Origin: a virus
Lineage: Duplodnaviria > Caudoviricetes
Strand: one strand, 5' to 3'
DNA length: 62,942 bases
Virus record (IMG/VR): IMGVR_UViG_3300038314_001058
Location: 1 to 62,942 of that record
Shown here piece after piece: positions 1 to 58,616 of the stretch. Made by a program: the position numbers and the translations under genes. The notes under the pieces are model-generated. The model saw only the letters and a list, made by a program, of their open reading frames with translations. It did not search any database and was not told the origin of the DNA. Each line of letters begins with the position of its first letter. Positions within the stretch are counted from its first letter, which is position 1.

Positions 1-98
1 TGCTCGCATCGATATCTCGAACCCTCAGGGTGACGCAAAGTTCATCGGCGTGAACAGTGACGGCCTGAGCGAGCAGCGTGAGGCCCTCAAGGAGGACC
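1..98. repeat. Terminal direct repeat, left copy (assembly overlap of a circular/permuted genome)
   Basis: 1-98 identical to 62844-62941; the final base 62942 mismatches position 99. Confidence 0.95.
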
Positions 99-571
99 GG
101 GCACGAGCAAGCTCCATGGGTGCTCAGACGGCTGACACCGTGAGCCGTGAGCGGGAGAGCGGCAAGTCCCTCGGCATCCGCCTCAGCAGCCGCACGGCAG
201 ACCTGAACACGATTGCTGACGTCGGCGCTGCTGGGCTTGAGAACATCCTCAAGATCGCCGCTGAATGGATGGGACTCAACCCCGAAGAAGTCAGCGTCAT
301 TCCGAACAAAGAGTTTGGCGAGACCGAACTCACCGGCCAGACGATGGTCGAACAGCAGACTGCCCGGAACCTCGGCTTCCCGATTTCCGCCCGCAGCCTT
401 CACAAGCGAGCCCGCGACAAGGGCCTCACGGACATGTCGTTCGAGGAGGAGACCGCCGCTATCGCTGAGGAGGAGAAGAACCCGGTCCTGAAACGTGACC
501 CTTCTGGTGACCGCAATGGTGATCAGAAGAACAAGACCGGCAACCCCGCAAACCCTGACGAAACAAACTAA
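1..571 (+). CDS. Portal protein, C-terminal part (continues from 61927 across the junction)
   Basis: Frame from position 2 is continuous with the ORF starting at ATG 61927; joined product about 495 aa; lies between terL and scaffold. Confidence 0.85.
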   Translation, partial: ARIDISNPQGDAKFIGVNSDGLSEQREALKEDRARASSMGAQTADTVSRERESGKSLGIRLSSRTADLNTIADVGAAGLENILKIAAEWMGLNPEEVSVIPNKEFGETELTGQTMVEQQTARNLGFPISARSLHKRARDKGLTDMSFEEETAAIAEEEKNPVLKRDPSGDRNGDQKNKTGNPANPDETN

Positions 572-583
572 GAGGAAAGATCG

Positions 584-1417
584 ATGGCGATCGAACTCAC
601 ATACGAGAATCGTTCTGCTCTGCCGGAAGCATTCCAGAACGATGACGTGTTCAACGAAATCTTCACTGAGAACGCCGACGGCACCGTGACGGTGACTGGC
701 GTCACCGGCATGAAGACGCAGAAGGACGTGGATTCCGTGAGCGAGGCTCTCCGCAAGGAGCGCAACGACCACAAGGAAACCCGCGAAAAGCTGCGCCCGT
801 GGGGTGAACTGGATGCGACCGAGACGCTGGCTCAGCTGGATCGCATCAAAGAACTCGAGGCCGCTGCTGGCGGCAAGCTCGACGACGAAGCGATCAACAA
901 GATCGTGGAAGGCCGCATCACCCAGCGTGTCGGCCCGATCGAGCGCAACCTGACCACGGTCACTGAGGAGCGCGATGCAGCGGTCGCAGAGCGTGATGCT
1001 CTGAAGAACCAGATCGTGACCCGTGATCGCAATGACACCATCCGTGAAGAGGCGACCAAGATCAAGGCGCACTCGACCGCGATCCCCGACATCGAGATGG
1101 CTGCGAGCGTCATGCTCGAGCAGAACGAGCAGGGCGAGTGGATCACCAAAGACGGCATCAACGGCATGACCCCCGGCCTGAAGGTCGACGGCTGGCTCCG
1201 GGAGATGCAGAAGATGCGTCCCCACTGGTGGCCCGAGACCGAGGGCAGCGGTGCCGGTGGTGGCGGTCCCTTGGGCAATGGTGCTGCGAACCCGTTCTCG
1301 GCGAAGAACTGGAACCTCACCGAGCAGGGCAAGATCTATCGTGAGAACCCGGTCCTCGCTGACCAGCTTGCGAAGTCTGCTGGCACGAAGGTCGGCGGTC
1401 CCAAGCCGGCGAAGTGA
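584..1417 (+). CDS. Capsid scaffolding protein
   Basis: Coiled-coil acidic protein with Gly-rich linker and NPF...WNLTEQ tail, between portal and MCP; SD GAGG. Confidence 0.75.
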   Translation: MAIELTYENRSALPEAFQNDDVFNEIFTENADGTVTVTGVTGMKTQKDVDSVSEALRKERNDHKETREKLRPWGELDATETLAQLDRIKELEAAAGGKLDDEAINKIVEGRITQRVGPIERNLTTVTEERDAAVAERDALKNQIVTRDRNDTIREEATKIKAHSTAIPDIEMAASVMLEQNEQGEWITKDGINGMTPGLKVDGWLREMQKMRPHWWPETEGSGAGGGGPLGNGAANPFSAKNWNLTEQGKIYRENPVLADQLAKSAGTKVGGPKPAK

Positions 1418-1426
1418 AAATAACAC

Positions 1427-1455
1427 TTGCACCGCATCTCTGAACGGGGTACGGT
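1427..1455 (+). promoter_or_regulatory. Sigma70-like promoter for the MCP, embedded in an inverted repeat
   Basis: TTGCAC-17-TACGGT; ACTTGCACCG...CGGTGCAAGT. Confidence 0.5.
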
Positions 1456-1555
1456 GCAAGTATCCGCTGGTCATGGGACCAGCCCTACCGACCGAGCAGG
1501 GGCTCACTGTCGGATCCTCCCAAACATTATCGGCCCACGCTGAAAGGAGCAAATC

Positions 1556-2614
1556 ATGGCAGCAGGCCCCGCAACTCGTGTGAGCGACGTCGTCGTTCCC
1601 GAGATCTTCACGAGCTACGCCCAACAGCTGACTGAAGAGAAATCCCGCATCATCCAGTCGGGCATGGCAGTCCGTGATTCCCAGATGGACGACCTTCTGG
1701 CTGGTGGTGGTCTCACCTTCAACCTCCCGTCCTTCGACGACCTGGACAACGATCCCGAACGCGTCAGCAACGACAGCTCGGCACCGTTCGACACCGCTGA
1801 CGCTTCCGTCAACGCCGCCGGTTCCGGCACCTCGCCCGAACGTCCGCCGGACCCGAAGAAGATCACCACGCTGACCGAGATCGGCGTCCGTATGAACCGG
1901 AACCAGTCCTGGTCCTCGATGCGTCTCGCCGCCACCCTCGCCGGTGTTGACCCGATGAACGCAATCGCCGACCGCGTCGCTGCCTACTGGGCTCGCCGCC
2001 TCCAGGCCGCTTTCGTGGCAACCTGGAATGGCGTGATCGCTGACAACGTCGCCAACGATGCCGGCGATCTGGTCAACGACATCTCTGGTGCCGGTTACTC
2101 GGCCGGTGTGACGGACTTCTCGGCCGAGGCCTTCATCGACACCGCCCTGACGATGGGTGACTCGATGGAAGACCTGACCGGCGTGATGATGCACTCCGTC
2201 GTCTACGCCCGTGCCCAGAAGAACAACCTGATCGACTTCATCCCGGACGCCCGTGGTGAGATCATGATCCCGACCTTCCTTGGTCGCGAAGTGGTTGTCG
2301 ATGACGGTATGCCCCGGACCGGTTCGGTCTACGACACGTGGCTCTTCGGCGGCGGGAACACCCGCATCGGCGTCGGCGCCCCGGCTGTCCCGACTCAGGT
2401 GCAGGACATCCCCGGCGCTGGCAACGGCGCAGGTCAGGAAGTTCTCTACAACCGTGTCGAGTGGATGATCCATCCCAACGGTCATGCCTACACCGGTGTC
2501 ACGCCCGATGGTGGCCCGGCGAACTCCGACCTGGACGACGCCGCTTCCTGGAACCGGGTCTTCACCGAGCGCAAACAGATCAAGTTCGCGCGGCTGGTCA
2601 CCCGCGAGGCATGA
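1556..2614 (+). CDS. Major capsid protein
   Basis: 352 aa, T-x-x-S-D-V-V-V-P-E-I-F N-terminus typical of phage coat proteins; strong SD AAGGAG; strongly biased codons. Confidence 0.9.
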   Translation: MAAGPATRVSDVVVPEIFTSYAQQLTEEKSRIIQSGMAVRDSQMDDLLAGGGLTFNLPSFDDLDNDPERVSNDSSAPFDTADASVNAAGSGTSPERPPDPKKITTLTEIGVRMNRNQSWSSMRLAATLAGVDPMNAIADRVAAYWARRLQAAFVATWNGVIADNVANDAGDLVNDISGAGYSAGVTDFSAEAFIDTALTMGDSMEDLTGVMMHSVVYARAQKNNLIDFIPDARGEIMIPTFLGREVVVDDGMPRTGSVYDTWLFGGGNTRIGVGAPAVPTQVQDIPGAGNGAGQEVLYNRVEWMIHPNGHAYTGVTPDGGPANSDLDDAASWNRVFTERKQIKFARLVTREA

Positions 2615-2679
2615 TCTGTTGAGGGGGCGGCTTCCGGCAGCGGTCGCCCTCTCACCACCCCAACCGTAGATACGGAGAA

Positions 2680-3381
2680 GTGACCATGTCGAAAGAAAAG
2701 ATTCAAGAAGTCCTCAGCAGCATGGACACGCTCGATGAAGAGCAGTGGACCGCTGATGGAAGCCCGAAGGTGGACTATGTTCGCCGCGAGGCCGGTGATG
2801 ACAGCATCAGTCGTCACAACATCTTCGAAGCCGCCCCGTCGTTCAGCCGCGAGAACCCGGTGATCACGCCCGTCGGCAAGGAGACCGAGGAGACCGAGGA
2901 GACCGAGGAGACCGAGGAGACCGACGCTCCTGAGGAGCCGAGCGTTCCCGAGGAACCCGAGGAACCCGAGGAACCAGAGGTTCAGGAGGACGACTCCGAC
3001 GACAAGGATGAAGAGGTCGACACCTATATGTCGCGCGCCGAGTTCGTCCGGCATCTCGCCGAGGTGCCCAAGGAGGATCTCCAGGCTCTCGAGGATACCC
3101 TCAAGGAGCGCCGCAACGAGATCAGTCTCGAGATCGACCGTCTCAAAGATCTGTTCGACCGCGCCGGTCATGCAGTTCAGCTGACCCGCGCTCGCCGGCT
3201 CCGGGAGATTCCCGAGATGACCGATCAGGAGGCTCGTCAGCTCTTCATCAAGAAGCAGAACGAGCAGCGCATGGCCCGGTTCGCCAAGCTCGAGAAGTCG
3301 GCCAAGTCGCCTCTCGATCAGGCAATGTCCCGCAAGAACCCTCGCGGTCAGAATCGCCCGGCCCGCACCATCCAGAAGTGA
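2680..3381 (+). CDS. Acidic hypothetical protein after MCP (possible head-associated protein)
   Basis: SD GGAG; Glu/Thr/Pro repeats in the middle; start may be 2686. Confidence 0.6.
   Translation: MTMSKEKIQEVLSSMDTLDEEQWTADGSPKVDYVRREAGDDSISRHNIFEAAPSFSRENPVITPVGKETEETEETEETEETDAPEEPSVPEEPEEPEEPEVQEDDSDDKDEEVDTYMSRAEFVRHLAEVPKEDLQALEDTLKERRNEISLEIDRLKDLFDRAGHAVQLTRARRLREIPEMTDQEARQLFIKKQNEQRMARFAKLEKSAKSPLDQAMSRKNPRGQNRPARTIQK
2881..2925 (+). repeat. In-frame 9-bp tandem repeat (GAGACCGAG x4 plus GAGACCGAC)
   Basis: Read directly; encodes ETE repeats; a CCCGAGGAA triplet follows at about 2948-2979. Confidence 0.9.
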
Positions 3382-3388
3382 GAACCCA

Positions 3389-4792
3389 ATGCCCCGGTTC
3401 GCCAGCCTGAGAAGCTCCACTGCCGTCGCCCGGACCCTCCGGGCGGCGCTTTACTATGCGAGGAAGAATCGTCTCGAGAAGCTGGGTGGCGACGTGGCTC
3501 CTGAGCCTGTAGATCCCCTCTTGGCTCCTGAGAATTTCTTCACTGAGGCTCAGTCCACTTTCGATGATACCGCTCACATCAATTTCCGCTCCAACTGGGA
3601 AGTGGATGTTGATGGATGGCTCTCCCATACTGGTGGAAACCCCGGTCAGGCCGCTCGTCTCTCACTCGACGAGCCAATCACTCCTGGGCATGCTCATTTC
3701 ATCCACTTTGATCACGAGATCACTGCTGGTTCCCTGAGAGCCCGTTTCGCTTCTCCAGGTGTTACGAACAGCCGACAACTCATTGTCAACTACATGGACT
3801 TTGAGTATGTAACAGCGGCTGAAGCGGCCAACGCGGCGACACGTATCGATCTCCAACCTTCTACCGACTACGCCGGTCGTGTCGACAATATCGCCGCTTA
3901 CGATCTGTCCACCGTCGATCCGAACATAGTTGCTTGCGATGTGATCATTGTTGCTGGTGATAGCAACGCTGCGAACGCTACGTCTGAACGATTTGGTGAT
4001 GAACCGGGTGACATCCCGACCAGTGCTCGTGAGACGGCCTACGATCCTCGCATCTGGTATATGCCGTGTCTTCGGGCTTCTGGCACCTATCCGACCACCG
4101 ACAGCACTCGCCACATCCCTCAGCCCTGTATCGAGCCGGTCGCCTCGGTTGAAGCCCGCCGTATGTCTCCCACCCACGCCGTCGGCGGTGAGATCGTCGG
4201 CTGGTCTGCAAATCGTGGTCGCCCTCTCCTGATCATGGCGCTTGGTGATCCCGGCTCCGGGCTTTCTAACACAGAGGACTGGGTCAAAGGATCTACTGCT
4301 GAAGTCAATGGTCAGCAAACTGGCTCTCGCATGTATGACGAGATGGTCGCCATGAAGGCTGCTGTCGACGCCCTTGGGCCTGCTCACGAAATCGTCGGCG
4401 CGGTCTGGTCCCTAGGGGCCAATGATCTGTATGGTGGGGACTACACCATTCCGGGTCAGTGGATGGAGAAGATGGTTGAGCTCATCAACAATGTTCGCAC
4501 TGATATCGCTGATGTTCCGATGGTTCTGTGGACGATTGGTGAGCATTATGAGCCTACTGACCAGAATGACGGGCGCGGAGCGGCTATGATCGCTGCTCAA
4601 CAGTTGCTGGATCAGGACAGTGGTGACGCGACGTGGTCACAGGATCGTTTCAATGTGATCGTCCCGGACACCGGAAACCAACTGACCGATGCAGATGACC
4701 CGCATTATACTGCTCATGGGATGCAAGAGAATGGCCGTGACGCGGGTCAGTCTCTACTCAGTCTGCTGATCGCAGAGAATCCCCCGACCTAG
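3389..4792 (+). CDS. SGNH/SASA-family (sialate O-acetylesterase-like) carbohydrate esterase, probably virion-associated
   Basis: Block motifs VIIVAGDSNA, GAVWSLGAND and DDPHY. Confidence 0.7.
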   Translation: MPRFASLRSSTAVARTLRAALYYARKNRLEKLGGDVAPEPVDPLLAPENFFTEAQSTFDDTAHINFRSNWEVDVDGWLSHTGGNPGQAARLSLDEPITPGHAHFIHFDHEITAGSLRARFASPGVTNSRQLIVNYMDFEYVTAAEAANAATRIDLQPSTDYAGRVDNIAAYDLSTVDPNIVACDVIIVAGDSNAANATSERFGDEPGDIPTSARETAYDPRIWYMPCLRASGTYPTTDSTRHIPQPCIEPVASVEARRMSPTHAVGGEIVGWSANRGRPLLIMALGDPGSGLSNTEDWVKGSTAEVNGQQTGSRMYDEMVAMKAAVDALGPAHEIVGAVWSLGANDLYGGDYTIPGQWMEKMVELINNVRTDIADVPMVLWTIGEHYEPTDQNDGRGAAMIAAQQLLDQDSGDATWSQDRFNVIVPDTGNQLTDADDPHYTAHGMQENGRDAGQSLLSLLIAENPPT

Positions 4793-4822
4793 CCATAGGC
4801 AACTCAACCACACGGAGCAGCC

Positions 4823-5719
4823 ATGACCATCAAAGTCGAAACAGGCATCGGCATCTACGGAGCGAACTCCTATGTTCCAGCTCAGTACGTCACCGACTAT
4901 CTCACGGCCCGTGGTCGCGAGACCGAGAACGAGTGGTCTTCGGCATCGCAGGAAGAGCAGGAAGAAGCCTGCATCGAGGCAACCGACTACATCGAGAAGA
5001 ACTTCGGCAGTCGTTTCCGTGGAACTCCTCTGACCTCGTTCGAGACCACCTACGCCGAGGCGACCGTCTCTTTTCTTGGGCTTCCCCTCACTGGCGAGAC
5101 GCTGACCGTCGGTGATGATGTCTACACTTTCGTGTCCGCCCTGACCGGTGAACCGTATGAAGTGCTGATCGGGGCGGATGCAGCGGCTACGAGTGCCAAT
5201 TTTGTAGACGCTCTGATGGGCGTGGTGCTGCAAGCCGGGGTAACGCACGGCGCAGCAACGCCAGCCAGCCGCCACAGCACGGCCACCAGCGCGGCGGGCG
5301 TTGCCACCCTTACCGCTACCGCCCCCGGCGCAAGCGGGGCCTACACGGAGCTCTCAGGGTCGCTCACAAACGTCACAATTACGGCGTTCACCGGCGGCAC
5401 GGACGGTGGCTCCCAGCCCCTGTCGTTTCCCCGGACCGGCATCTACGATCTTCGTGGCAACCGCATCCTTGGTGTCCCTGAGAAGATCAAACAAGCGACC
5501 GCCGAGTACGCCGTTCGCGCCCATGCTGCCCTTCTGATGCAGGACAGTGCTGCTGACGCCTCTGGTGGCCCGATCCTTCTCCGCCGTGAGAAGGTGGGTC
5601 CGATCGAAGAAGAATATGAATATGGAGGTTCCGTGTCGATCCAACGGTATCCTGCTGCCGATCGCCTGATCCGCGCCTTCACCGTGGCCGGTGCTGGGGG
5701 AGGCGTAATCCGTGCCTGA
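4823..5719 (+). CDS. Head-tail adaptor (DnaT-like family) with internal insertion
   Basis: ANSYV...YLTARG, ATDYIE, QPLSFPR, EKVGPIEEEY motifs; synteny. Confidence 0.7.
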   Translation: MTIKVETGIGIYGANSYVPAQYVTDYLTARGRETENEWSSASQEEQEEACIEATDYIEKNFGSRFRGTPLTSFETTYAEATVSFLGLPLTGETLTVGDDVYTFVSALTGEPYEVLIGADAAATSANFVDALMGVVLQAGVTHGAATPASRHSTATSAAGVATLTATAPGASGAYTELSGSLTNVTITAFTGGTDGGSQPLSFPRTGIYDLRGNRILGVPEKIKQATAEYAVRAHAALLMQDSAADASGGPILLRREKVGPIEEEYEYGGSVSIQRYPAADRLIRAFTVAGAGGGVIRA

Positions 5720-6113
5720 ATTCTACGAAAGGATGGCAGCAACTGCCAATCGCTTGATTACGAAACGTGGACGGGACCTTAGACTCGTTCGCTTGGACCA
5801 GGATGCTGGTGATACTCAGCGTCCATGGTGGGGGCCGGGGGACAATCCGAATGAACAGTTTCTCCCCCTGAAGGGCGTGTTCGTTCCTCCTGGAACCGTC
5901 CGGCAGTTCGGACTTCAGTCCCTCGGCCTCGGCACCGAGATCGAAGACATGATCGCCTGGAGCGAGCAGATCATCATCGTAGCCCAAGGGGAGAACGACC
6001 TTCGCCTCTACAAGGAGGTCGATGATGGTGGTGTCCGCTGGGGAGTCGTCGCTTCGCAGATCCTCAAGCCGGGGACGACCACCCTCCTGGGCTTCATAGG
6101 AGTTCGCCGATGA
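5712..6113 (+). CDS. Head closure protein
   Basis: FYERMAATANRLITKRG N-terminus; size and synteny. Confidence 0.6.
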   Translation: MPEFYERMAATANRLITKRGRDLRLVRLDQDAGDTQRPWWGPGDNPNEQFLPLKGVFVPPGTVRQFGLQSLGLGTEIEDMIAWSEQIIIVAQGENDLRLYKEVDDGGVRWGVVASQILKPGTTTLLGFIGVRR

Positions 6114-6529
6114 GTCTCACGTTCGAAGAATCGTATGATTCCATTTATGGTCTTTTCAAGGCTGCATGGGACCCCACCTCCTATCCTGCCTATTACGAGG
6201 CAGTTGACAAAGACCGTATGCCTGATGATCAGCCGTGGGTCTGGGTCAGTATCGAACACGCAGGTGGGAGACAGGCAAGCCTCAGTTCTGGGACTGGTCA
6301 AGCCCGCTTTGAACGGAACGGCATCTTTACTGCTCGCATTTTTGTGGCGGCAGGAAAGGGCTTGCAAGATGCTCTGCCTTTGGCTAAGGTGGTCGCAGAC
6401 GCTTTCGAGGGTAACAGCGCTCCAGGGGGAGTGTGGTTCAGGAACGTGAGGATGAATGAAGTCGGCCGTGATGGCAAGTTCTTTCAGGTGAACGTTCTTG
6501 CAGAATTCACATACGATGAAATCAAGTAA
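6110..6529 (+). CDS. Tail terminator protein
   Basis: 139 aa directly upstream of the tail tube gene; PWVWVSI...G.FTARIF pattern. Confidence 0.65.
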   Translation: MSLTFEESYDSIYGLFKAAWDPTSYPAYYEAVDKDRMPDDQPWVWVSIEHAGGRQASLSSGTGQARFERNGIFTARIFVAAGKGLQDALPLAKVVADAFEGNSAPGGVWFRNVRMNEVGRDGKFFQVNVLAEFTYDEIK

Positions 6530-6540
6530 AGGAGCGCCAC

Positions 6541-8055
6541 ATGGCACAGGTCGCAAAGATCGACTCCAACTCCACCGGACTCGCCTACGCTGAGGAAGCC
6601 TCCCTCAAGACGCTGAGCTCGCCCGTCTGGAAAGGTCTGGAGCCGAACAGCTACGGGGACTTCGGCAGCGATATCACGACTGTCGCACCCGCCCCCATCA
6701 CCGACACCCGTTCGCGCAAGAAAGGTTCCGTCACGGACCTTGACGCGTCTGGTGGTTTCAACCAGAACCTCACCCTCTGGAACTTCGAAGACATCATGCA
6801 GTCGCTGATGTTCTCGAACTGGGAGCGCAAGGGTCTTGAAGAAGTGACGGCTGTCACTGGCACCGTCTACGAGATGGCCTCCACGACTGGCTTCCTGGAC
6901 GGCAGTCTCGTGAAAGGCTTCAAGTTCTCCAATGCTGCGAACAACGGCATGGGTCTTGTCACCGCTGTCACCGCTGACACCTCCATTGCAGTCGCTGGCC
7001 TGACGGCCGAGGGTTCGCCTCCGACCGGTGCCTATGTTCAGGTCGTCGGCTTCCAGGCCGACGCTGGCGACATCGACGTCGACATCTCGGGTGACTTCCC
7101 GACCCTTACCTCGACGACCCTGGACTTCACCACTCTTGGGCTCATCCCCGGTCAGTGGATTTTCCTCGGCGGTGACACAGCGATCACCGAGTTCACCAAT
7201 GCTGTGAACAACGGCTTCAAGCGGGTCCGGTCGATCTCGGCGAATGCTCTGGTCCTCGACAAGTCCGCCGCTGCAATGGTCACCGAGGCGACCACCACCG
7301 AGACGATCCAGATCTTCTTCGGTGACGTCCTTCGTAACCGCACCGGCACCGACATTACGCGCCACACCTATCACCTCGAGCGTCTCCTCGGCGTTCCTGA
7401 CGACGCCCAGCCCGCTCAGGTTCAGTCGCAGGTCCTCCAGGGCATGGTCTGGAACGAAGGTGCCTTCAACATCCCGACGGCAAACCTCGTGAACGTGGAC
7501 GCGACTTTCGTCGGCCTTGATGAGCTTCTCCGCACCGCGGCCGAGGGTCCGTTGCAGACGAACGTTCAGGCACCGATGTCGGCTGACGTCTACAACACGA
7601 GCTCGGACTTCAACCGCCTGAAGATTGCTCAGGTCACCTCGGCAGACGAAGCTCCGGTGCCGCTGGCGACCTACGTGACTGAGATCACGGTCAACGTCAA
7701 CAACAACGTGACCGCCAACAAGGCCGTCGCGGTTCTCGGTGGTTTCGATCTCACCGCTGGCATCTTCCAGGTCAGTGGCTCCGTCACCGCCTACTTCAAC
7801 AACGTCTCCGCAATCGCGGCCGTTCGCAACAACGCCGATATCACGATGGACGCTATCATCGTGAAGAACAACGGTGGTATCGCAATCGATATCCCGCTGA
7901 TCGCCCTCGGCGATGGTCGCCTGAACGTGGAGGCAAACGAGCCGGTGACCATCCCGCTCGCAATGGATGCAGCAGAGGGTCTGGACGCCTACAGTGGCTT
8001 CTCCCACACTCTGCTGTGGACGTGGTTCGCATACCTGCCGGATGCAGCCGAATAA
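6541..8055 (+). CDS. Major tail tube protein
   Basis: 504 aa; KIDSNSTGLAYAEE and LEPNSYGDFG motifs; upstream of chaperone and TMP. Confidence 0.8.
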   Translation: MAQVAKIDSNSTGLAYAEEASLKTLSSPVWKGLEPNSYGDFGSDITTVAPAPITDTRSRKKGSVTDLDASGGFNQNLTLWNFEDIMQSLMFSNWERKGLEEVTAVTGTVYEMASTTGFLDGSLVKGFKFSNAANNGMGLVTAVTADTSIAVAGLTAEGSPPTGAYVQVVGFQADAGDIDVDISGDFPTLTSTTLDFTTLGLIPGQWIFLGGDTAITEFTNAVNNGFKRVRSISANALVLDKSAAAMVTEATTTETIQIFFGDVLRNRTGTDITRHTYHLERLLGVPDDAQPAQVQSQVLQGMVWNEGAFNIPTANLVNVDATFVGLDELLRTAAEGPLQTNVQAPMSADVYNTSSDFNRLKIAQVTSADEAPVPLATYVTEITVNVNNNVTANKAVAVLGGFDLTAGIFQVSGSVTAYFNNVSAIAAVRNNADITMDAIIVKNNGGIAIDIPLIALGDGRLNVEANEPVTIPLAMDAAEGLDAYSGFSHTLLWTWFAYLPDAAE

Positions 8056-8070
8056 TCGACAACCCAAGGA

Positions 8071-8526
8071 GTGACCAAAATGTCGATGTATGATATGTTC
8101 GCCGCCGATGAACACCTGGAAGCCGAAGGCGTCTGGGTGGACTATGGTGATTTTCGTGTCCTTCTTGCTCGTGCCGGCGGTGCGAACAAGAAGTACACGA
8201 AATACATGGAGACGAAGTCGAAGCCCTTCCGTCGCGCGATCCAAGCCGGTGCAATGCCGGAGAAGCGCAGCCGGGAGCTTCTGTTCGACGTCTACGCCAC
8301 CACGGTCATCAAGGACTGGGAAGTCAACTCCGGCGAGGCCGAGGATGGCTCCACTGTCTGGGAACGCGGTATCCACATGCCCGACGGGTCCGTCGGCGAG
8401 TACTCGAAGGACAACGTCATGTTGACCTTCCGCAAGCTGCCCGATCTGTTCTTCGATCTGCAGAAGCAGGCCGATGGCATCGCAATCTTCCGCAAGGAAG
8501 AGATGGAGGAAGATGCAAAAAACTGA
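8071..8526 (+). CDS. Tail assembly chaperone (gpG-like)
   Basis: Position before TMP; ends in slippery A AAA AAC TGA. Confidence 0.8.
   Translation: MTKMSMYDMFAADEHLEAEGVWVDYGDFRVLLARAGGANKKYTKYMETKSKPFRRAIQAGAMPEKRSRELLFDVYATTVIKDWEVNSGEAEDGSTVWERGIHMPDGSVGEYSKDNVMLTFRKLPDLFFDLQKQADGIAIFRKEEMEEDAKN
8517..8523 (+). other. Programmed -1 frameshift slippery site A AAA AAC
   Basis: The -1 frame is open from 8523 (CTG ACA GAG...) into ORF 8577-8846. Confidence 0.8.
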
Positions 8527-8846
8527 CAGAGGTCCTTCTCTATAACCTCGTAAGGGGTGACGTAGAGGTAAGGATCATGACCGAAGCCCTGAGGGACGGG
8601 CTTGAGATCCCAGAAGAGATATCCAATGCTCCGGAGCTTGCAATGGGGCTAGAGCTCTACTATAATGGGTTCATGGATATCTCTGATAGCCGCCAGATTG
8701 GGATGGGTCTTGGTCCTATTCCGTGGGTCGTCGTCCACGAGTACTGTAATGCGCTCGAATTGGACGACGACCAGCGGGAAGCCATGCATCATCACATTCG
8801 AGCTATGGATGGGGCCTTCCTGGAGCACAATCGCAAGAAGAGCTAG
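8523..8846 (+). CDS. Tail chaperone frameshift extension (gpT-like)
   Basis: R.IGMG.GPIPW motif; reached by the -1 frameshift. Confidence 0.75.
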   Translation: MTEVLLYNLVRGDVEVRIMTEALRDGLEIPEEISNAPELAMGLELYYNGFMDISDSRQIGMGLGPIPWVVVHEYCNALELDDDQREAMHHHIRAMDGAFLEHNRKKS

Positions 8847-8850
8847 CGTC

Positions 8851-9315
8851 ATGGCAACAATGATCCAATTTGGTCGCAATATGCGGAAGCGGGCTCTTCG
8901 TATGGAAAACGCTTCCGTTGACATGACCAAGAGGGTCGCCAAGCGAGCTCTCCGCGCCCTAGTTGAAGGGACTCCGGTCGATAAAGGTGTGGCCCGCTCG
9001 AACTGGCGGGCCTCCATCTACAACCCTACGAGAGCAGTCATCCCCGCCTACTCACCGGGTAAGAACCTCGGTCGTGGTGAGCGGGCGAATGCAAGAGCGG
9101 CGATCGCTGCCGGTATCGCTCAAATTGATCAGCTGAAGGTTGGTCTTCAACGTGGCACCGGCCAAGCCGGTCGCACAGTCTACCTGACCAATGCAATCCC
9201 CTATCTCCAGAAGCTGCGGAATGGGTACTCCAGTCAACAGACAAACGACTGGGTCCAAACCGCTCTTCTCGAGGCGAGGGGCGAGATCGCAACCACGAGA
9301 CTTCTAGAGCGGTAA
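8851..9315 (+). CDS. Tail completion/neck protein (HK97 gp10-like)
   Basis: TPVDKGVARSNW and YLTNAIPY..KL.NGYS.Q motifs; start reassigned to ATG 8851. Confidence 0.7.
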   Translation: MATMIQFGRNMRKRALRMENASVDMTKRVAKRALRALVEGTPVDKGVARSNWRASIYNPTRAVIPAYSPGKNLGRGERANARAAIAAGIAQIDQLKVGLQRGTGQAGRTVYLTNAIPYLQKLRNGYSSQQTNDWVQTALLEARGEIATTRLLER

Positions 9316-9316
9316 C

Positions 9317-12300
9317 ATGGCAACAGAGAATCTAGACATTGTCATCCGTGAGCGCGGAGCCCGTGTCGTACGTCGCAGGATCGAGGATATCGGTAGCACG
9401 GCCAGCCGTGCCTCCAAGGGTATCCATCTTCTTCAGCAAGCTGTGTTCGCTCTCGGTGCCGCTGGTACGGTCGCCTCCCTTGGGCGTATGCTGGACAGCC
9501 TGACGAACTTCGAGAACCGCCTCCGCCTCGTGACCAATAGCACGGCTGAGCTTGAAGCGGTTCAACAGTCTCTGTTCGGTATTGCCGAAAGGACGAGGTC
9601 TGAGTTCGAGTCAGTATCCGAGACCTATACGAGAGCGGCCCTTGCCCTCCGATCTCTCGGTTACACTCAGCAAGAGGTCCTCAACTACACTGAGCGACTG
9701 AGTAAGGCAGTGATCCTGTCTGGTGCGAGCGTTCGTGAAGCAAACGCCGCCATGATCCAGCTGTCGCAGGGTATGGCCTCTGGTCGCCTGAACGGTGAAG
9801 AACTTCGCTCTGTCTTGGAACAGCTTCCGTATGTCGCTGACGTCATCGGTCAAGAACTGGTGCGAATCGGTGAGATCTCCCGAGGCTCCTTGGGCGAGGA
9901 TGCCGTCATCAATGCCCAGACGCTGACAGAGGCAATGATCAATACTCGTGGTGAAATGCGAGCTCTTGGTGCCGACGGCAAGATCACTTCGCAGGTTATC
10001 ATTGATGCCTTCCGCAATGCTGGTGTTGAAATTGATTCTGCGTTCGCCCAAACCCAATCGACCATCGGTCAGGCGATCAGCGTTCTTCGTACGAACCTGC
10101 TCAGTACCCTAGATTCATTCGATGACGCAACCCAGTTCTCGGCCAGTCTGGCTGATGCGATCAGGGCGGTCTCCGATTCTCTCGATGTCCTTCTTCCACT
10201 GCTCGCAGCCTATGGTGTATCTGTGGCCGCAAGGTTCAGCGGAAACATCCTCCGTTCGACTATCAACGCTACCCGTCAGGAGCTTGCGTATCAGGCCGCT
10301 GTCCGGAATGGATCTGCCATTGTTCTCGGCTCTGTCCAAGCGAACGAAGCCAAGGCTGCGGCAGTCCTCGCTGAATCAAGAGCCAAGGCTGGTCTTGAGG
10401 CTCAGACAGTGAGGTATCTCACGACTCAGAAGGCTGAGATCGCTGCTCAGCTTCAGGCCCTCCGTGCTGATCAGGCGAGCATCGCTATCGACCGGTCGAA
10501 GCAGACTGCCGTCAGCACCCTTACCGGCCGGACGATCGAATATGACACCGCAGTCCGTCGCAACCTTCAGACGACGCAGGCTATCAACATCGCTGAGCAG
10601 AACCTTGTCTCCACCAAGCGCGCTCTGATCGCGGCGATGGGCGCTCAACGGAATGCGGCTATCACTCTGGCAGCAGATCAATCAAGAGCAGCGGCTGCGA
10701 CGGCGGCGGCGAACACCTTCGGTCAGCGTTTGATCCGCATCGTGCCGGGTCTCTCGCTAGTGGCCGCTGGTCTCAGGACCATCGTCTCCCTTCTGGGCGG
10801 TCCTGTCAGCGCCGCCTTTATCGCTGTGATCGGCATCATGGCCGTCTGGAGAAGCCGCTCCGAAGTGATCGAAGCCTCCACGAGAAGGCTGGAGTCGATT
10901 GCCAATGATGTCCGTGAGGCCTACGCTGGGGTCAACGGCGAGGTCGGAAATATCGCTGATAAGCTCAGCACGATCACTCGTGTTGAGGCTATGAGAGAAC
11001 TGACGAACCAGACGAATATTCTGAAATCCTCTCAAAGTGCCCTTGCTGCTGAACTCCAGAATGTCGGCGCGAGCTACGTGGCTCTTGGCGATCAGTATTT
11101 CGTGGAGCAGTTCCGAAACATGGCAGAGGAGGTTCGCAACGGCACGGCAAACCTCGATCAGCTTCGCAATCGCCTCTCTGGAATTGCGGAGACCTCTCCG
11201 TTCGAAGAGATCATCGTTGGTGCTATTGAGGCCAGCCGGGAGACCAGCACGGCAGAAGAGAACTTCCGCCTTGCCGAAGCGATTCTGGCAGTCCTGGATG
11301 GCACGGCCACAGGGGCGCAGCGCGCCCTCCTTGGGCTTAGTTCCGGAGCAGACACCGCCGCTGGCTCTGTTCGCAATCTGGGAAGTGCAGCCCTCGCAAG
11401 CATCAACGCTCTTCGCCAGCTGAAGGGTTTCATCCCCGAGCTTGACAAAGCCGCTCGTATGCAGGAGGATCTTGCAGAGGCCCAAAACCTATATACGATC
11501 GGTGTCAACCAAGCCCAGGAGAGGCTCGACTCCGGGGTCGGCAGTCTCGATCAGTATGCGGCAACTGTCGCAGAACTGGAGGAGACCTACAAGCGAGCTC
11601 GTGCAGAGATCGATGGCACCGCTGAGTCACAGCGTGAAGCCAACAAGGTCTTCGAAGAGTACAGCAACGACACCAACCTCCAGCTGATGGACGACCGGGC
11701 TCGTGCGATTCAGCTTGAGAAAGACAGCTACAACGAAGTTCGTGAAGCGATCGAAGGAACCGCTGGTGCTACCGAGCGGCTCGCAGCGCTTGAGTCCCAG
11801 CACTCCCAGCGTCTCCAGCAGATCAACAAAGACTTCGATGAAATGGAGGCGAAAGCTGGTGGTGGTGGCAAGAAAGGTGCCTCGGCGGCTGCTAAGAAGC
11901 TGAAAGAAGAACTCAAGGAGGTGAACAGCGTCCTCGAGTCCATCAAGGGTCCTGCTGATAACTACAACAGGACTCTGGAGATCCTGGACGAGCTTCTTGA
12001 GAAAGGAAAGATCAGCCAAGCGGAGTTCAACACAGCTACTCGTGACTCCCGCATCGCCTTCCTTGAGTCCCAGACCACGATGCAGGCTGGCTTCGAAAGC
12101 GGCTTCCTGAAGATCATTCAGAAGACCGAGGACGCTGCCTCGCAGATGGAGAACATCATCACCTCGGCCTTCGATGGGATGTCTAAGTCGATTGCTGATC
12201 TGGTGGTTGACGGTGAAGCAGACTTCAGCAGCCTCATCAAGAGCATCAACAAAATGATCATCCAGCTGGTGGTTTCGCAAGCCTTCCAGCAACTCTTCGG

Positions 12301-12673
12301 TGATCAAGCTGGTGTGAACGGAGGCGGCTTGTTCTCTAGCTTCTCCAGTGCCTTGGGTGGCATTGTGGACAGCGCCTTTGCGGGCCTCAGCGGAGCGCCC
12401 GGTGCGGCGGCTGGTGGCTCCTTTACTGTGGGTGCAGGGCAGGGCTTCGGAGGCCTGAGGGGCCACGACGACCGGCTGGTGCCGCTCCGTCTGAAGACCG
12501 GGGAGCACGTCGACATCACTCCGCGAGGCCAAGAGCCAAATCGTGGCGGTGGGGAGACCCATGTTCATAACTGGAACATCACCACTCCGAACGCTGAGTC
12601 GTTCCAGGCAAGCAGATCGCAAGTTTCGGCCCGTGCAGCACGAGCCGTCAGTATTGGACGGAGAAATATGTAA
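9317..12673 (+). CDS. Tape measure protein
   Basis: 1118 aa Ala-rich helical; tape-measure N-terminal motif QLSQGMASGRLNGEELRSVLEQ. Confidence 0.95.
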   Translation: MATENLDIVIRERGARVVRRRIEDIGSTASRASKGIHLLQQAVFALGAAGTVASLGRMLDSLTNFENRLRLVTNSTAELEAVQQSLFGIAERTRSEFESVSETYTRAALALRSLGYTQQEVLNYTERLSKAVILSGASVREANAAMIQLSQGMASGRLNGEELRSVLEQLPYVADVIGQELVRIGEISRGSLGEDAVINAQTLTEAMINTRGEMRALGADGKITSQVIIDAFRNAGVEIDSAFAQTQSTIGQAISVLRTNLLSTLDSFDDATQFSASLADAIRAVSDSLDVLLPLLAAYGVSVAARFSGNILRSTINATRQELAYQAAVRNGSAIVLGSVQANEAKAAAVLAESRAKAGLEAQTVRYLTTQKAEIAAQLQALRADQASIAIDRSKQTAVSTLTGRTIEYDTAVRRNLQTTQAINIAEQNLVSTKRALIAAMGAQRNAAITLAADQSRAAAATAAANTFGQRLIRIVPGLSLVAAGLRTIVSLLGGPVSAAFIAVIGIMAVWRSRSEVIEASTRRLESIANDVREAYAGVNGEVGNIADKLSTITRVEAMRELTNQTNILKSSQSALAAELQNVGASYVALGDQYFVEQFRNMAEEVRNGTANLDQLRNRLSGIAETSPFEEIIVGAIEASRETSTAEENFRLAEAILAVLDGTATGAQRALLGLSSGADTAAGSVRNLGSAALASINALRQLKGFIPELDKAARMQEDLAEAQNLYTIGVNQAQERLDSGVGSLDQYAATVAELEETYKRARAEIDGTAESQREANKVFEEYSNDTNLQLMDDRARAIQLEKDSYNEVREAIEGTAGATERLAALESQHSQRLQQINKDFDEMEAKAGGGGKKGASAAAKKLKEELKEVNSVLESIKGPADNYNRTLEILDELLEKGKISQAEFNTATRDSRIAFLESQTTMQAGFESGFLKIIQKTEDAASQMENIITSAFDGMSKSIADLVVDGEADFSSLIKSINKMIIQLVVSQAFQQLFGDQAGVNGGGLFSSFSSALGGIVDSAFAGLSGAPGAAAGGSFTVGAGQGFGGLRGHDDRLVPLRLKTGEHVDITPRGQEPNRGGGETHVHNWNITTPNAESFQASRSQVSARAARAVSIGRRNM

Positions 12674-13305
12674 TGGCCTTTCACGAGGTACAGTTCCCGA
12701 CATCTGTCAGCCGAGGGTCCACTGGTGGTCCTCGGCGTATGACTGACGTCATCGTCCTCCGTAGCGGTTTCGAGCAGCGCAACTCTCTTTGGGCGAACTC
12801 CCTCCGTCAGTATAACGCCGGTCTCGGGCTTCGCAGCATGGACGATCTGTATGCGACCCTTGACTTCTTCGAAGGTCGTCGCGGCCGTCTTCACGGGTTC
12901 CGGTTCAAGGACTGGGCTGACTACAAGTCTGTGAGTCCTCTGTCAACTATCACCAACCAAGATCAGCTTCTTGGAACAGGTGATGGCAGCGTGGTCAGTT
13001 TCCAGCTCAGGAAGCAGTATGATGCTGACGAGAACCCGTGGTATCGTAACATCACAAAGCCGATTGAAGGTAGTGTGGTCGTTGCCCTGAACTTCGCAGC
13101 CCAAGTGGAGGACACAGATTATACCGTCGACTACACGACCGGCGTCATCACCTTCGCGACCCCTCCTGCTGCCGGGGTCGCCGTCCGGGCTGGCTTTGAG
13201 TTCGATGTCCCGTGTCGTTTCGACCAAGATGAGATCATGGTAAACGTGGAGCTCTTTAGTTCCGGCAGCGTTCCTGACATCAACATCAAAGAGATTCGCA
13301 TATGA
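12673..13305 (+). CDS. Distal tail protein, RcGTA g12/DUF2460-like
   Basis: MAFHEVQFP...GGP...SGFEQRN..W and AGFEFDVPCRFD. Confidence 0.9.
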   Translation: MAFHEVQFPTSVSRGSTGGPRRMTDVIVLRSGFEQRNSLWANSLRQYNAGLGLRSMDDLYATLDFFEGRRGRLHGFRFKDWADYKSVSPLSTITNQDQLLGTGDGSVVSFQLRKQYDADENPWYRNITKPIEGSVVVALNFAAQVEDTDYTVDYTTGVITFATPPAAGVAVRAGFEFDVPCRFDQDEIMVNVELFSSGSVPDINIKEIRI

Positions 13306-14765
13306 CCAAGGATATCTCGACAGCACTTCAGGATCACCTCAACAGTGGAACCACGACGATGGTTCACTGCTGGAAGCTCACTCGCGATGTTGTGGCAGCG
13401 GCCTTCTTCCCTCCTGACTTCTCTGGAGCTCTCCTTCATCCCCTCAACGTGGCTGGAAACCCGGCCCCGAATTATTCCGGAGGTGTGACCCCCGGCGAGG
13501 GGTGGAAGATCCAGAGCCTCTTTGCAAATCCCGATTTCGAGAACGACATCGTTCTTGATCCATATCTTCTCAACCTTCAGGACAACTCTGAAGGATACTG
13601 CGCCAGCTTTGATATCGATCTATCTGAAGTTCCACTCGGCACTGTTTTCGATTTCAGCTTTCTCCAGACGAACACAGCGAACGTCGGAACTGTCGTGGAC
13701 GCGCAGAGCTATCTTCGTGTCTATACACAGGCCGATCTTGACGGCGCGACCCTCGGCGGTCTTCGTGTTGATGACTGGACCACCGTATCCAGCATCGATC
13801 TGGACTTCGGGACACCGAGCACCTACACTCACAATCACACCTTCACCCACAGTGATCCGAACCATATCATCCTGCGTCTGATGATCATTCTCGACAACAA
13901 GGGCAGTGACTTTGTCAATCGTCAGGCGCGGTACGACACCCTCAACATGACAGCCGATCCCAGCCTCGATGGTGACACCACGGCTGTTCTTGGCTTCACT
14001 GAGTGCGACATTCCTCTGACCTTCGATGATCTGACCTACGAGCCGACCTCCGGCTTCACTGCCTCCAAGGTGGACGCCTCTCTTGGGCTTGCAGTCGACA
14101 ACCTGGAAGTGGAGGGCATCTTTCGGTCTGACGCTATCACTGAAGAAGCTTTGGCCCGAGGTGACTTTGACGGGGCGACTGTTGATCTGTATTGGGTGAA
14201 CTTCGAAGACGTTAGTCAGAGGACCCTGCTCAGTTCCGGAACCCTCGGTGAGATTCGTCGTACCGAGTTTGGCTTCACAACTGAGATCAGGTCCAAAGCC
14301 CAGAAGATGCAGCAGCAGACCGGTCGGCTCTACTCCAAGACCTGCGATGCGGTGTTCGGGGATGAGCGCTGTGGTTACAACGTAGAGAACGCCACCTCAG
14401 GGGGATCGGTGGTATCCTCGACAGGCGACCGGGTGCTGACAACGACTGGTGTCTCTGACGATGAGAACGATGTCTATACGTTTGGTCTGCTTACCTTCAC
14501 CTCTGGTCAGAACAGTGGCAAGAGCTTTGAGGTCAAGAACCATACGACTGGCCGGGTCGCCCTCTGGGAGAAAACCCCGTTCCCTATTGCTGATGGTGAT
14601 ACATTCTCTATTCGCCAAGGATGCAACAAGTATGCGAGCACCTGCGCCTCGAAGTTCTCAAACATCAGGAACTTCCGGGGGTTCAACTATATCCCTGGAA
14701 GCGACACCCTCACAAGGAGCGCCAAGAAGGACGGCTCTCAGAAAGGCCAGAGTATCTACAAATGA
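13302..14765 (+). CDS. Baseplate hub, RcGTA g13/DUF2163-like, with a ~199-aa insertion
   Basis: CWKLTRD...VLGFTECD, GLAVDNLEVEG, CDAVFGDERC, GCNK..STC..KFSN..NFRGF. Confidence 0.85.
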   Translation: MTKDISTALQDHLNSGTTTMVHCWKLTRDVVAAAFFPPDFSGALLHPLNVAGNPAPNYSGGVTPGEGWKIQSLFANPDFENDIVLDPYLLNLQDNSEGYCASFDIDLSEVPLGTVFDFSFLQTNTANVGTVVDAQSYLRVYTQADLDGATLGGLRVDDWTTVSSIDLDFGTPSTYTHNHTFTHSDPNHIILRLMIILDNKGSDFVNRQARYDTLNMTADPSLDGDTTAVLGFTECDIPLTFDDLTYEPTSGFTASKVDASLGLAVDNLEVEGIFRSDAITEEALARGDFDGATVDLYWVNFEDVSQRTLLSSGTLGEIRRTEFGFTTEIRSKAQKMQQQTGRLYSKTCDAVFGDERCGYNVENATSGGSVVSSTGDRVLTTTGVSDDENDVYTFGLLTFTSGQNSGKSFEVKNHTTGRVALWEKTPFPIADGDTFSIRQGCNKYASTCASKFSNIRNFRGFNYIPGSDTLTRSAKKDGSQKGQSIYK

Positions 14766-15175
14766 ATGAACGCCTGAATGAGATTGCCCGTAGCTGGATC
14801 GGGACACCCTACCGGCATCAGATGAGTAAGAAGGGCGTAGGTTGCGACTGCCTCGGACTTCTGACCGGTTGCTGGCGGGAGTACTACACAGGGTCGGACC
14901 CTGAGTGGGTCCCGCCATACAGCCCGACATGGGGTGAGCACCGGCGGGACGACCCGTTTCTTGCTATTGCCAAGAGACACATGGACGGGGTAAGCTGCCT
15001 GGAGCAAGCGGACGTTCTTATCTTCCGTATGCGCCCGTCTGTCGCAATCAAACACGTCGCTGTCTACACAGGAAACGGAACGATCATTCACGCCTACAGT
15101 CGCCACGAGGTGCGTGAAGAACCGTATACCAGATTCTGGTCGTCAAAGATGGCAGGGAAATTCAGGTTTAGATAA
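14762..15175 (+). CDS. NlpC/P60 peptidase, RcGTA g14-like
   Basis: ARSWIGTPYRHQ...GCDCLGL, KHVAV, IIHAY. Confidence 0.9.
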   Translation: MNERLNEIARSWIGTPYRHQMSKKGVGCDCLGLLTGCWREYYTGSDPEWVPPYSPTWGEHRRDDPFLAIAKRHMDGVSCLEQADVLIFRMRPSVAIKHVAVYTGNGTIIHAYSRHEVREEPYTRFWSSKMAGKFRFR

Positions 15176-20288: not shown

Positions 20289-20442
20289 CCCGCCAAGGTG
20301 CGACCCCTCAGACGCCCTTACAGTGCAACCTTACGCTACCGGGCGGGGTTGTACCTGTAAGGCACCAGTATAGCACCAGCGGCCCGCTCAGAGCGCCTGC
20401 AAACGTGTTTGACAGCTAACCAACGGCACCACGGGGGCTAAC

Positions 20443-22141: not shown

Positions 22142-22460
22142 TGACTGGTCCTTGCTGGCTTTACTTAGACCGTAAGTAGAGTCAGCAAGGTTCAAGCGTA
22201 CCTCATTAAGCCTTTGTTTTAAAACGGTTTTAGACCGGACGGTTCCCTGACTTTACTGGCACCACAGCCCAAGTTGCACGGTAAACCGGCCCAAGGTGGG
22301 CGCAAACCGTGGAGCGTAGCGAGGCAGCAAAACCGGTAGAGTAAGTGGAGTATGTAGTGTTATTACTCTTATTATATAATAAAAACAAAAGGTTAAGGCA
22401 ACCCGGCTTGGCTTCGGCTGGCTCTACTTAGACCGTTTTGACTCTACTTGCAGTTTAAGA
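22142..22460. other. AT-rich non-coding region with repeated CTCTACTT/AAGTAGAG motifs; candidate replication origin A
   Basis: AT tract at about 22350-22390; motif copies at about 22173, 22422 and 22442. Confidence 0.45.
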
Positions 22461-24243: not shown

Positions 24244-24272
24244 TTGTCTGCCGCCCCTGTGGCGGCTAGGGT
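24244..24272 (+). promoter_or_regulatory. Sigma70-like promoter
   Basis: TTGTCT-17-TAGGGT. Confidence 0.6.
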
Positions 24273-24491
24273 GCCTTTACCCCGGCTTATGGGTAACGGC
24301 GCGGCGGCGGCTATGCCATAGGGTCGCTGTCGCGCCGCTCATAAAGCGCCACTCACGGACTCATCCATGAGTCGGGGTCAGAGCCCACCGGAGGCCAAGT
24401 GAACGGAGAAGCGAGCATGAATCAACGAACCGGCTGGCCTAGCCGTTACGAAGAGGCCCGTTTCCTCGTTCAATTGGAACAGGAGATGACC

Positions 24492-31507: not shown

Positions 31508-31521
31508 CGAAAGGAAGTCTC

Positions 31522-42314: not shown

Positions 42315-42530
42315 GGACGACCCGCACGACGATTGGACCGCTGACCTTGCCAACCTAAGACCCTCAGGGAGCCATACAGGGCAACCAATGGGCCAAGGGG
42401 CAAGGGCAGCGCCACAGGGCAACCCGGCCACCAGTGCGGCGCTCAGCGGCCCCTCAGAGGCACCTGAAACAAAGGGTTAGCACCCACCAGCGCGGCGGGT
42501 TACAATGTGGGGGCAATTAAGGAGGCACCT

Positions 42531-58205: not shown

Positions 58206-58218
58206 AGTTTTAACTTTC

Positions 58219-58610: not shown

Positions 58611-58616
58611 GCAGTT

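Follow-up and report, generated by a model that had tools for sequence, protein, structure and literature searches.

A TC/GA-free stretch in the head-tail adaptor gene of a siphovirus and its possible link to thymidine hypermodification

Background

What keeps 132 nucleotides (nt) in the middle of a phage structural gene free of TC and of its complement, GA? The question is raised by positions 5216-5347 (plus strand) of IMGVR_UViG_3300038314_001058, a complete 62,942-bp IMG/VR record that was analysed whole and is referred to below as the window. It represents a siphovirus akin to PhiJL001, a phage of Alphaproteobacteria; its relationship to the M6/YuA group is more distant. The stretch, here called the patch, comprises codons 132-175 (MGVVLQAGVTHGAATPASRHSTATSAAGVATLTATAPGASGAYT) of a head-tail adaptor gene (4823-5719) and contains zero TC and zero GA. 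A first-pass annotation, made from the sequence alone, had proposed a cis-acting DNA element overprinted on a dispensable Ala/Thr/Gly-rich insertion. The results support a DNA-level constraint overprinted on the coding sequence of the adaptor gene. The favoured explanation, to which a probability of about 0.55 is assigned, is that TC is the context in which this phage would hypermodify thymidine, and that the patch and similar stretches are kept unmodified. Four related genomes, G001-G004, were taken whole for comparison.

The patch and its codon choice

The stretch of about 132 nt without TC or GA is confirmed. The patch is bordered by GA at 5215-5216 and by GA at 5348-5349, the next TC/GA, which leaves a gap of 133 nt. 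The window as a whole holds 10,177 TC+GA in 62,942 nt, i.e., one per 6.18 nt, and the adaptor gene outside the patch holds 16.7 per 100 nt. The gap ranks fourth in the window, after those of 158 nt (at 58771), 149 nt (52319), and 136 nt (35511); the next ones measure 77, 77, 74, and 63 nt. In 200 genomes simulated by a first-order Markov model, the longest TC/GA gap averaged 45 nt and reached 66 nt at most. None of the remaining nine dinucleotide classes (reverse-complement pairs) shows a comparable set of long runs in the window.

Runs of this length are not common under codon-shuffled nulls either. When codons were resampled 20,000 times by genome codon usage with the protein held constant, the longest run was 100 nt, and 20,000 permutations of the gene's own synonymous codons gave 92 nt at most; a gap of 133 nt never arose. 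For this protein and the codon usage of the genome, the exact probability that all 44 codons are free of TC/GA is 3.3e-7. The abrupt change in codon usage reported at first pass is also borne out: the patch employs GTA, GCA, GGG, CAA, and CCA, of which GTA, CCA, and CAA are rare. All four of its serines are encoded by AGC (TCN accounts for 67% of Ser codons genome-wide), and it lacks both GTC (48% of Val genome-wide) and CTC (37% of Leu).

Conservation of the missing step in relatives

Thirty-nine IMG/VR loci with a full adaptor gene were examined; the identities given are those of the adaptor protein to its counterpart in the window. The nearest loci apart from L022, i.e., L023-L028 (57-60% amino acid identity), have a TC/GA-free run of 137-139 nt at gene offset 393, and L022 itself has runs of 91 and 48 nt interrupted by a single Glu codon. 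A run of 134 nt at offset 376 is present in L043, which has 46% identity and belongs to a genome of 43% GC. Nine loci of about 50-54% identity (L029-L033, L036, and L038-L040) possess runs of 46-75 nt, six of them in the form 75+46 or 64+53 nt. The remaining 21 loci, PhiJL001 among them, range in identity from 51% (L034) to 37%, and no run in them exceeds 40 nt.

Codon permutation within each locus gave 0/5000 in the window, in each of L023-L028, and in L043. Among the intermediate loci p was 0.0004-0.016 in six, 0.056 in L033, and 0.09 in L029, and it was above 0.3 in L034, L035, and L048. The exact probability of the TC/GA-free patch is 9.2e-7 in G001 and 4.7e-8 in G002.

The absence of the TC/GA step is what is conserved, not a particular sequence. 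Between the window and L023, 20 of the 44 codons are identical, 11 differ synonymously, and 13 non-synonymously; the comparison with L043 gives 10, 6, and 27, respectively. Lineages that keep the purge thus differ in 24/44 (L023) to 33/44 (L043) codons. In close relatives the rate of synonymous differences is 0.19-0.33 in the patch versus 0.17-0.23 in the rest of the gene. As so many codons differ, synonymous sites drift as elsewhere, and Asp and Glu are all lost, selection acts on the dinucleotide step and not on the sequence.

The adaptor and its middle domain

The 298-residue product is assigned to the Ad1 head-tail adaptors by Pfam PF20557 (DnaT_2; 83.4 bits versus a cut-off of 27, E=2.2e-23), by phrog_477 (E=3.9e-37), by its homologues, and by an AlphaFold2 model. 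The gene is located between the capsid genes and the head-closure, tail-terminator, and major tail genes, an order kept in G001, G002, PhiJL001, and M6. The two family matches cover only residues ~1-60 and ~190-294. By comparison with the M6 adaptor (gp24), a short Ad1 of 172 residues, the protein possesses an added middle domain (residues ~65-190).

The patch lies within this domain, and the claim that it occupies a dispensable insertion is therefore not supported: the domain is conserved and confidently folded. Database searching yielded 314 homologues at E<=0.001; the best 120 of the 314 are almost all 282-318 residues long. The alignment of these ~300-residue homologues, which could have exposed an insertion, runs through the middle domain instead, with conserved blocks that include SRHxxA and APGxSG. 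The model, built with 69 sequences, has a mean predicted local distance difference test score (pLDDT) of 91, which rises to 98 over residues 70-200, and the patch runs from the end of a helix through a loop and two strands to a short helix. Compared with the PDB by Foldseek, the model had no match at E<=0.001; the top-ranking matches are weak ones to phage tail-sheath and connector chains, with a template modeling score of about 0.25.

The Ala/Thr/Gly-rich composition itself is as first described, but it is a consequence of the purge and not a trait of an insertion. Because GAN codons necessarily contain GA, Asp and Glu cannot be recoded and are excluded from the patch. The segment is rich in Ala, Thr, and Gly and has no Asp, Glu, Phe, or Ile. 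Among the 69 aligned sequences (the window and 68 homologues), 18 have zero Asp/Glu in the 44 patch columns. These are mostly the nearer ones; distant homologues have 3-10 Asp/Glu in the same columns.

TC/GA-free islands elsewhere in the genome

The patch is one of ten TC/GA-depleted zones that a sliding count detects in the window; two are coding (the adaptor gene and a DUF3310 gene), the others intergenic. The second coding island (35512-35647, plus strand, 136 nt) lies in the Ala/Gly/Thr-rich C-terminal extension of the DUF3310 gene (35110-35727), directly upstream of the DNA polymerase gene, and has syntenic islands in G001 and G002. A gap scan locates a 77-nt island between genes at 20312-20388 and another island downstream of the SNF2 helicase gene (24248-24324). 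Upstream of the same gene lies an island (22250-22312) whose syntenic counterpart in G002, at 3028, can be aligned with it in part. Two islands of 74 and 56 nt with direct repeats (42370-42522) are placed just downstream of the primase-helicase gene and are syntenic in G001 and G002. The 149-nt island at 52320-52468 carries perfect inverted repeats of 15 nt. Upstream of the terminase genes extends a large non-coding depleted zone (58128-59000) that contains the longest free run of the window, 158 nt at 58772-58929, made of GGGCAGGG / GCCACAGGG repeats and GGGCA / GGGCAGGGGCA repeats.

The places occupied by islands are shared. In the window, G001, and G002, the adaptor gene and the C-terminus of the DUF3310 gene contain islands. 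Others follow the primase-helicase gene, flank the SNF2 helicase gene on both sides, and occupy the large non-coding region that precedes the terminase genes. Inside the structural operon of roughly 24 kb, all three have the adaptor patch as their sole island. TC/GA-free runs reach 179, 167, 144, and 137 nt in G001 (51% GC) and 290, 164, 144, 134, and 133 nt in G002 (43% GC); the longest runs of G003 are 65, 64, 64, and 57 nt, and G004 has a single run of 87 nt. The sliding count gives seven zones in G001, eight in G002, three weak ones in G003, five weak ones in G004, and zero in PhiJL001 and M6. The purge recurs in lineages of 43-57% GC. It is the same in non-coding islands and in both gene orientations, and within islands T is followed by A, G, or T at normal or raised frequency; TC alone is missing.

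Some islands have peculiarities of their own. The longest one (58772-58929) is a strong G-quadruplex-type sequence. The island at 55445-55506 is extremely AT-rich (TTATTTATTTATTATTATTATTAATATAAAATAAAA), whereas the other islands are GC-rich; G001 has a similar AT-rich island at 35135-35187, upstream of its SNF2 helicase gene. The largest depleted zone of G001 contains, beside a perfect 12-bp palindrome, five copies of CAATAGG. Next to this zone a 13-nt unit (AATAGGGATTAGG) is repeated in tandem about 14 times (60838-61035 of G001, locus L108), and the whole looks like an origin or packaging region.

Modification genes and avoidance of palindromes

To judge by its genes, the window encodes the kit of thymidine-hypermodifying phages. 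A 5-hydroxymethyldeoxyuridine (5-hmdU) DNA kinase (HMUDK_hel, PF18723, E=3.5e-26) is encoded at 30560-31507 and a radical SAM/SPASM enzyme at 31435-32526, adjoining the kinase gene. A thymidylate-synthase homologue (PF00303, E=9.9e-23) is encoded at 33513-34565, and its candidate activity would be that of a dUMP hydroxymethylase rather than a methylase. All three genes are on the plus strand; an HD phosphohydrolase and a dCMP deaminase are further members of the kit in the window. The kinase is 51-63% identical to those of G001-G004 (57% in G003, 51% in G004) and less than 30% identical to that of any cultured phage.

In known systems, hypermodification is reported to be tied to dinucleotide context, TG or TG/TC (PMC6449724, PMC13458397, PMC8989533). 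Resistant restriction sites in phages M6, ViI, and phiW-14 are described as TG/TC-rich, with the M6 kinase acting on TG (PMC6449724), and alpha-dapT of phage SH-Ab 15599 is placed at TG (PMC13458397). The low identity of the kinase to those of cultured phages makes a context other than TG plausible. A preference for NTC is reported for the phage thymine dioxygenase 5mYOX97 (PMC13229309, PNAS 2026). A profile search for Tet_JBP was uninformative, as its control matched nothing either. Modification at GA in the form of 7-deazaguanine or adenine methylation was rejected, as a search of the phage for TGT/DpdA, D12, and N6_N4 methyltransferase genes found none.

If a step bears a protective mark, restriction sites that contain it need no avoidance. 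Observed-to-expected (O/E) ratios of all 6-bp palindromes were therefore obtained from maximal-order Markov expectations, and palindromes with and without a TC/GA step were compared by the Mann-Whitney U test. In the window the median O/E is 1.00 with and 0.63 without the step (p=8e-4), and the lowest value among the 16 palindromes with TC/GA is 0.59. The corresponding medians are 0.98 vs 0.50 in G001 (p=2e-5), 0.91 vs 0.78 in G002 (p=0.011), and 0.92 vs 0.60 in G003 (p=0.0014); in G004 and PhiJL001 the classes do not differ. Permutation within GC classes preserves the difference (p=0.005 in the window, 0.0014 in G001, 0.017 in G002, and 0.005 in G003), and non-palindromic 6-mers have an O/E of 1.0 in both classes. 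Among the palindromes avoided in the window are CCCGGG (0 observed, 16.6 expected), TGGCCA (0, 13.0), GGGCCC (0, 9.4), AAGCTT (2, 20.1), and CTGCAG (3, 21.2).

When the test was applied over all ten steps to phages of known chemistry, it singled out TG/CA in M6 (0.94 vs 0.08, p=5.5e-6) and in SH-Ab 15599 (0.94 vs 0.70, p=9e-4). TG is the experimentally known context of both. The outcome is taken as fair, though indirect, support for a protection of sites with TC/GA in the lineage of the window.

Complete absence from the window extends to GTGCAC and GGTACC, which together with CCCGGG, TGGCCA, and GGGCCC make up a set with 4.5-16.6 occurrences expected each; GCATGC, like AAGCTT and CTGCAG, is nearly absent. 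G001 contains zero GTAC, with 80 expected.

A rule possibly written by the modification context

According to the favoured explanation, the phage would replace thymine via the 5-hmdU pathway and hypermodify T in 5'-TC-3', a context predicted from sequence that accounts for about 38% of T in the window. As 5'-TC-3' reads GA on the opposite strand, a duplex with neither TC nor GA would offer no modifiable site on either strand. Selection has stripped some 135 bp in the central part of the adaptor gene of all TC/GA steps, both by means of permitted synonymous codons and by replacement of all Asp and Glu, and has done the same at about nine other, mostly intergenic, syntenic places. The patch would be kept TC/GA-free to remain ordinary DNA. 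As to its role, the best guess is that a DNA-binding or DNA-tracking protein of late transcription, of replication/recombination, or of the modification machinery recognizes the patch or loads there. A bolder version would have this marine siphovirus lineage encode a map of its unmodified DNA by deleting modifiable TC at about ten conserved places, the adaptor patch being a true cis-acting pad for a machine unable to start on hypermodified DNA; it is put forward tentatively, with the odds somewhat against it.

Several observations weigh against hypermodification at TC as the reason for the islands. The longest TG/CA-free stretch is 79 nt in M6 (~71 expected) and 43 nt in SH-Ab 15599 (~66 expected); as these phages of known TG context have no context-free islands, such islands are not a general consequence of context-specific hypermodification. 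G003 combines the palindrome signature with only weak islands, and G004 has the kinase but neither the palindrome signature nor strong islands. The four genomes with the signature are relatives and not independent. The tetranucleotide TCGA is under-represented although it holds both steps (O/E 0.90 in the window, 0.53-0.81 in G001-G004), and in the GC-stratified test of the window CG reaches the same strength as GA/TC. The notion that promoters must be unmodified is disfavoured by the putative promoter word TTGTCATTTGC (see below), which has TC in its -35 element and is followed by 30-54 nt free of TC/GA in only four of its six copies. Finally, no promoter, terminator, or stable RNA fold was found in the patch: sigma-70 -35/-10 hexamers at 16-18 nt spacing were searched for in 5216-5347 on both strands and none was found, and a promoter and terminator scan of 4700-6200 gave nothing within the patch.

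Alternative explanations

The TC/GA step might be read instead of written, if something cuts, nicks, deaminates, or binds the duplex at TC/GA and the islands must stay untouched. The reader could be a TC-preferring deaminase or nuclease of double-stranded DNA, from host or phage, with the thymine pathway perhaps not involved. The purge is strand-symmetric and purely dinucleotide-level, which would suit any reader of the duplex, and hypermodification alone does not require islands, since other hypermodifying phages lack them. On the other hand, TC/GA is the commonest step elsewhere (about one per 6 nt), and a destructive reader would ruin the genome unless its sites were protected, so that a TC-specific protection would be needed again; the palindrome signature indicates just such a protection of TC/GA-containing sites. 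TT and AA are not enriched in the islands, and there is hence no footprint of TC-to-TT deamination; decay of the APOBEC type was rejected on the same ground. Genes exclusive to island-bearing genomes, among which a reader could be sought, amount to just one, an open reading frame (ORF) of 76 residues at 47032-47262 (phrog_19182) with no function assigned. Altogether, a reader of the step has a small but appreciable chance of being the answer.

The islands might instead harbour a sequence-specific cis element, e.g., a binding site, an iteron, or a Chi-like word, and lack TC/GA as a by-product; this is the element as first proposed, and it is unlikely. Its starting point, a near-identical pair of words, is real: GGCCACCAGCGCGGCGGG lies at 5281-5298 (plus strand; in frame as (T)ATSAAG) and CCCACCAGCGCGGCGGG at 42483-42499. 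Their core, GCCACCAGCGCGGC, occurs with up to one mismatch six times in the window, all six inside islands (besides the patch, at 35563, 35626, 42427, and 42483 on the plus strand and 52428 on the minus strand), and with up to three mismatches 30 times versus 9.9 expected. Several 8-mers, e.g., GGGCAGGG, GCCACAGG, and CACCAGCG, are more frequent than a second-order Markov model of the islands predicts. GGGCAGGG is linked to islands in the window (10 of 15 occurrences), G001 (5 of 7), and G002 (4 of 5). When the null retains the protein and excludes TC/GA, the sharing of an exact 16-nt word between the patch and another island has p=0.023, and that of a 12-nt word in G002 has p=0.024.

In G001, however, the same test gives p=0.47, and a search of the relatives' adaptor islands by codon alignment found the motif absent. 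It spans only 18 of the 132 nt of the patch, and the remainder is equally free of TC/GA. In both coding islands it is simply an in-frame Ala-Thr-Ser-Ala written in permitted codons. No conservation of sequence beyond coding needs was found for the patch across relatives: synonymous sites diverge as elsewhere, with the 24-33 differing codons noted above. An exact-word scan of IMG/VR for CCAGCGCGGCCACAGGG returned 15 unrelated single matches. What stands of the proposal for a cis-acting element overprinted on coding sequence is thus the constraint at the DNA level (P=3.3e-7; same offset in diverged relatives), whereas the specific shared element is weak (p=0.023; motif absent from relatives).

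The Chi-like word in question, CCACCAGC, is the reverse complement of GCTGGTGG, an octamer taken here to be E. coli Chi. Outside islands GCTGGTGG has 14 sites, 12 on the plus and 2 on the minus strand, a bias that may merely mirror the coding on the plus strand.

An explanation at the level of RNA, in which the messenger avoids GA/UC for the sake of an RNase or of its structure, or one by a second reading frame is very unlikely. Small ORFs do overlap the region (5122-5307 on the minus and 5301-5537 on the plus strand). Yet the fold energy of 5205-5360 is ordinary (z=+0.40; 121 of 200 shuffles have a fold of equal or greater stability), and no Rfam family and no tRNA was found in the window. 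TC and GA, the missing words, are each other's reverse complement, as would be expected of a duplex feature but not of a single-stranded one, and the purge affects non-coding islands and both gene orientations as well. Chance is practically refuted: the absence of Asp, Glu, Phe, and Ile does remove many obligatory or favoured TC/GA codons and could by accident leave an Ala/Gly/Thr-rich, acid-free segment of a GC-rich gene without the step, but the codon nulls in the window, which take that protein as given, the permutations in relatives, and the exact probabilities in G001 and G002 contradict it, the purge recurs across different sequences of 43-57% GC, and distant homologues of the same fold do have acidic residues there. 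Avoidance of CRISPR PAMs and a pac site were considered on general grounds and set aside.

Relation to known systems

The closest counterparts to what is proposed for the window are the phages that hypermodify via 5-hmdU, i.e., Pseudomonas M6 (5-NedU), Salmonella ViI, Delftia phiW-14, and Acinetobacter SH-Ab 15599 (alpha-dapT). The gene kit that they share with the window comprises a thymidylate-synthase homologue, a 5-hmdU DNA kinase, a radical SAM enzyme, and a dCMP deaminase. Their marks block type II restriction, and the palindrome statistics of the window mirror this. The differences lie in the predicted context, TC here and TG there, in the kinase, with its identity of less than 30%, and in the islands: the present lineage keeps about ten stretches free of its predicted context, and none free of theirs are found in M6 or SH-Ab 15599. 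The available parts of the hypermodifier papers describe no such islands, and full-text searches of the literature found no paper describing TC/GA-free islands of this kind.

The dioxygenase 5mYOX97 illustrates that a phage enzyme can choose T in TC context after replication (PMC13229309); it belongs to another enzyme family, and the phage of the window would make 5-hmdU at the nucleotide level. Restriction-site avoidance offers a further parallel, in which selection at the DNA level leaves words under-represented, and the window does strongly avoid 6-bp palindromes without TC/GA. The islands differ from it in that a single dinucleotide step is avoided, and only locally, in conserved places of 60-290 nt; elsewhere it is the commonest step. 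By analogy only, vertebrate CpG islands are likewise local exceptions in the density of a mark-bearing dinucleotide at conserved, often regulatory positions. Their sign is opposite, as the step is retained there and removed here; chemistry, organisms, and origin differ, and no shared descent is implied.

If TC is the modified context, positions of plain DNA could be read from sequence, which would provide candidate origins, promoters, and loading sites in uncultured phages. The patch would also show clearly how a rule of DNA modification shapes the amino acid composition of a protein, with a folded domain of a virion protein free of acidic residues over 44 positions. As the relief of palindromes from avoidance recovered TG for M6 and SH-Ab 15599, this statistic could predict the modification context in thousands of metagenomic phages before any chemistry, which would help in the choice of restriction enzymes, sequencing protocols, and phage-host pairings.

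Further observations

Two ORFs flank enzymes of the modification region. The one at 32529-33512 (327 residues), which adjoins the radical SAM gene, was considered for the transferase that would install the final group (aGPT-Pplase or similar); searches of Pfam and PHROG gave no family for it, and it has a homologue only in G004. The one at 29790-30560, just upstream of the kinase gene, contains a 174-nt run free of AC/GT (30343-30517) and 284 nt without AT; the AC/GT-free run encodes a low-complexity protein tail rich in Lys, Ala, and Glu, and the same tail is present in G002. Farther downstream, the ORF at 47564-48112 weakly matches a pyrimidine-dimer DNA glycosylase (PF03013, E=5e-5; phrog_624) and is otherwise found only in G001 and G003.

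Metatranscriptome contigs of four RNA libraries (X12, X14, X15, and X17), compared with positions 1-20000, indicate that the phage is present, and they give no starts, ends, or levels; one contig of X12 ends at 5189 and X14 leaves 4670-5336 without cover, neither of which is interpretable.

The word TTGTCATTTGC has six exact copies, all on the plus strand and before genes (39174, 44793, 46544, 48930, 53161, and 59242), and a hexamer resembling TATGGT or TATAAG lies 17-18 nt downstream of them. The phage probably uses this word as its sigma-70-type promoter for early or middle expression. Another word, GCCCAAGGAGG, has 22 sites with up to one mismatch on both strands versus 1.6 expected, e.g., 3066, 21238, 45670, and 58256 on the plus strand and 11326, 17387, 31291, 32117, 37492, and 57725 on the minus strand; it is not simply a ribosome-binding site, as about half of its copies are antisense to genes. 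Within an ORF of the structural region, a 9-nt tandem repeat (AGGAGACCG and variants, about ten copies) occupies 2879-2980, and one metatranscriptome contig carries a length variant of it.

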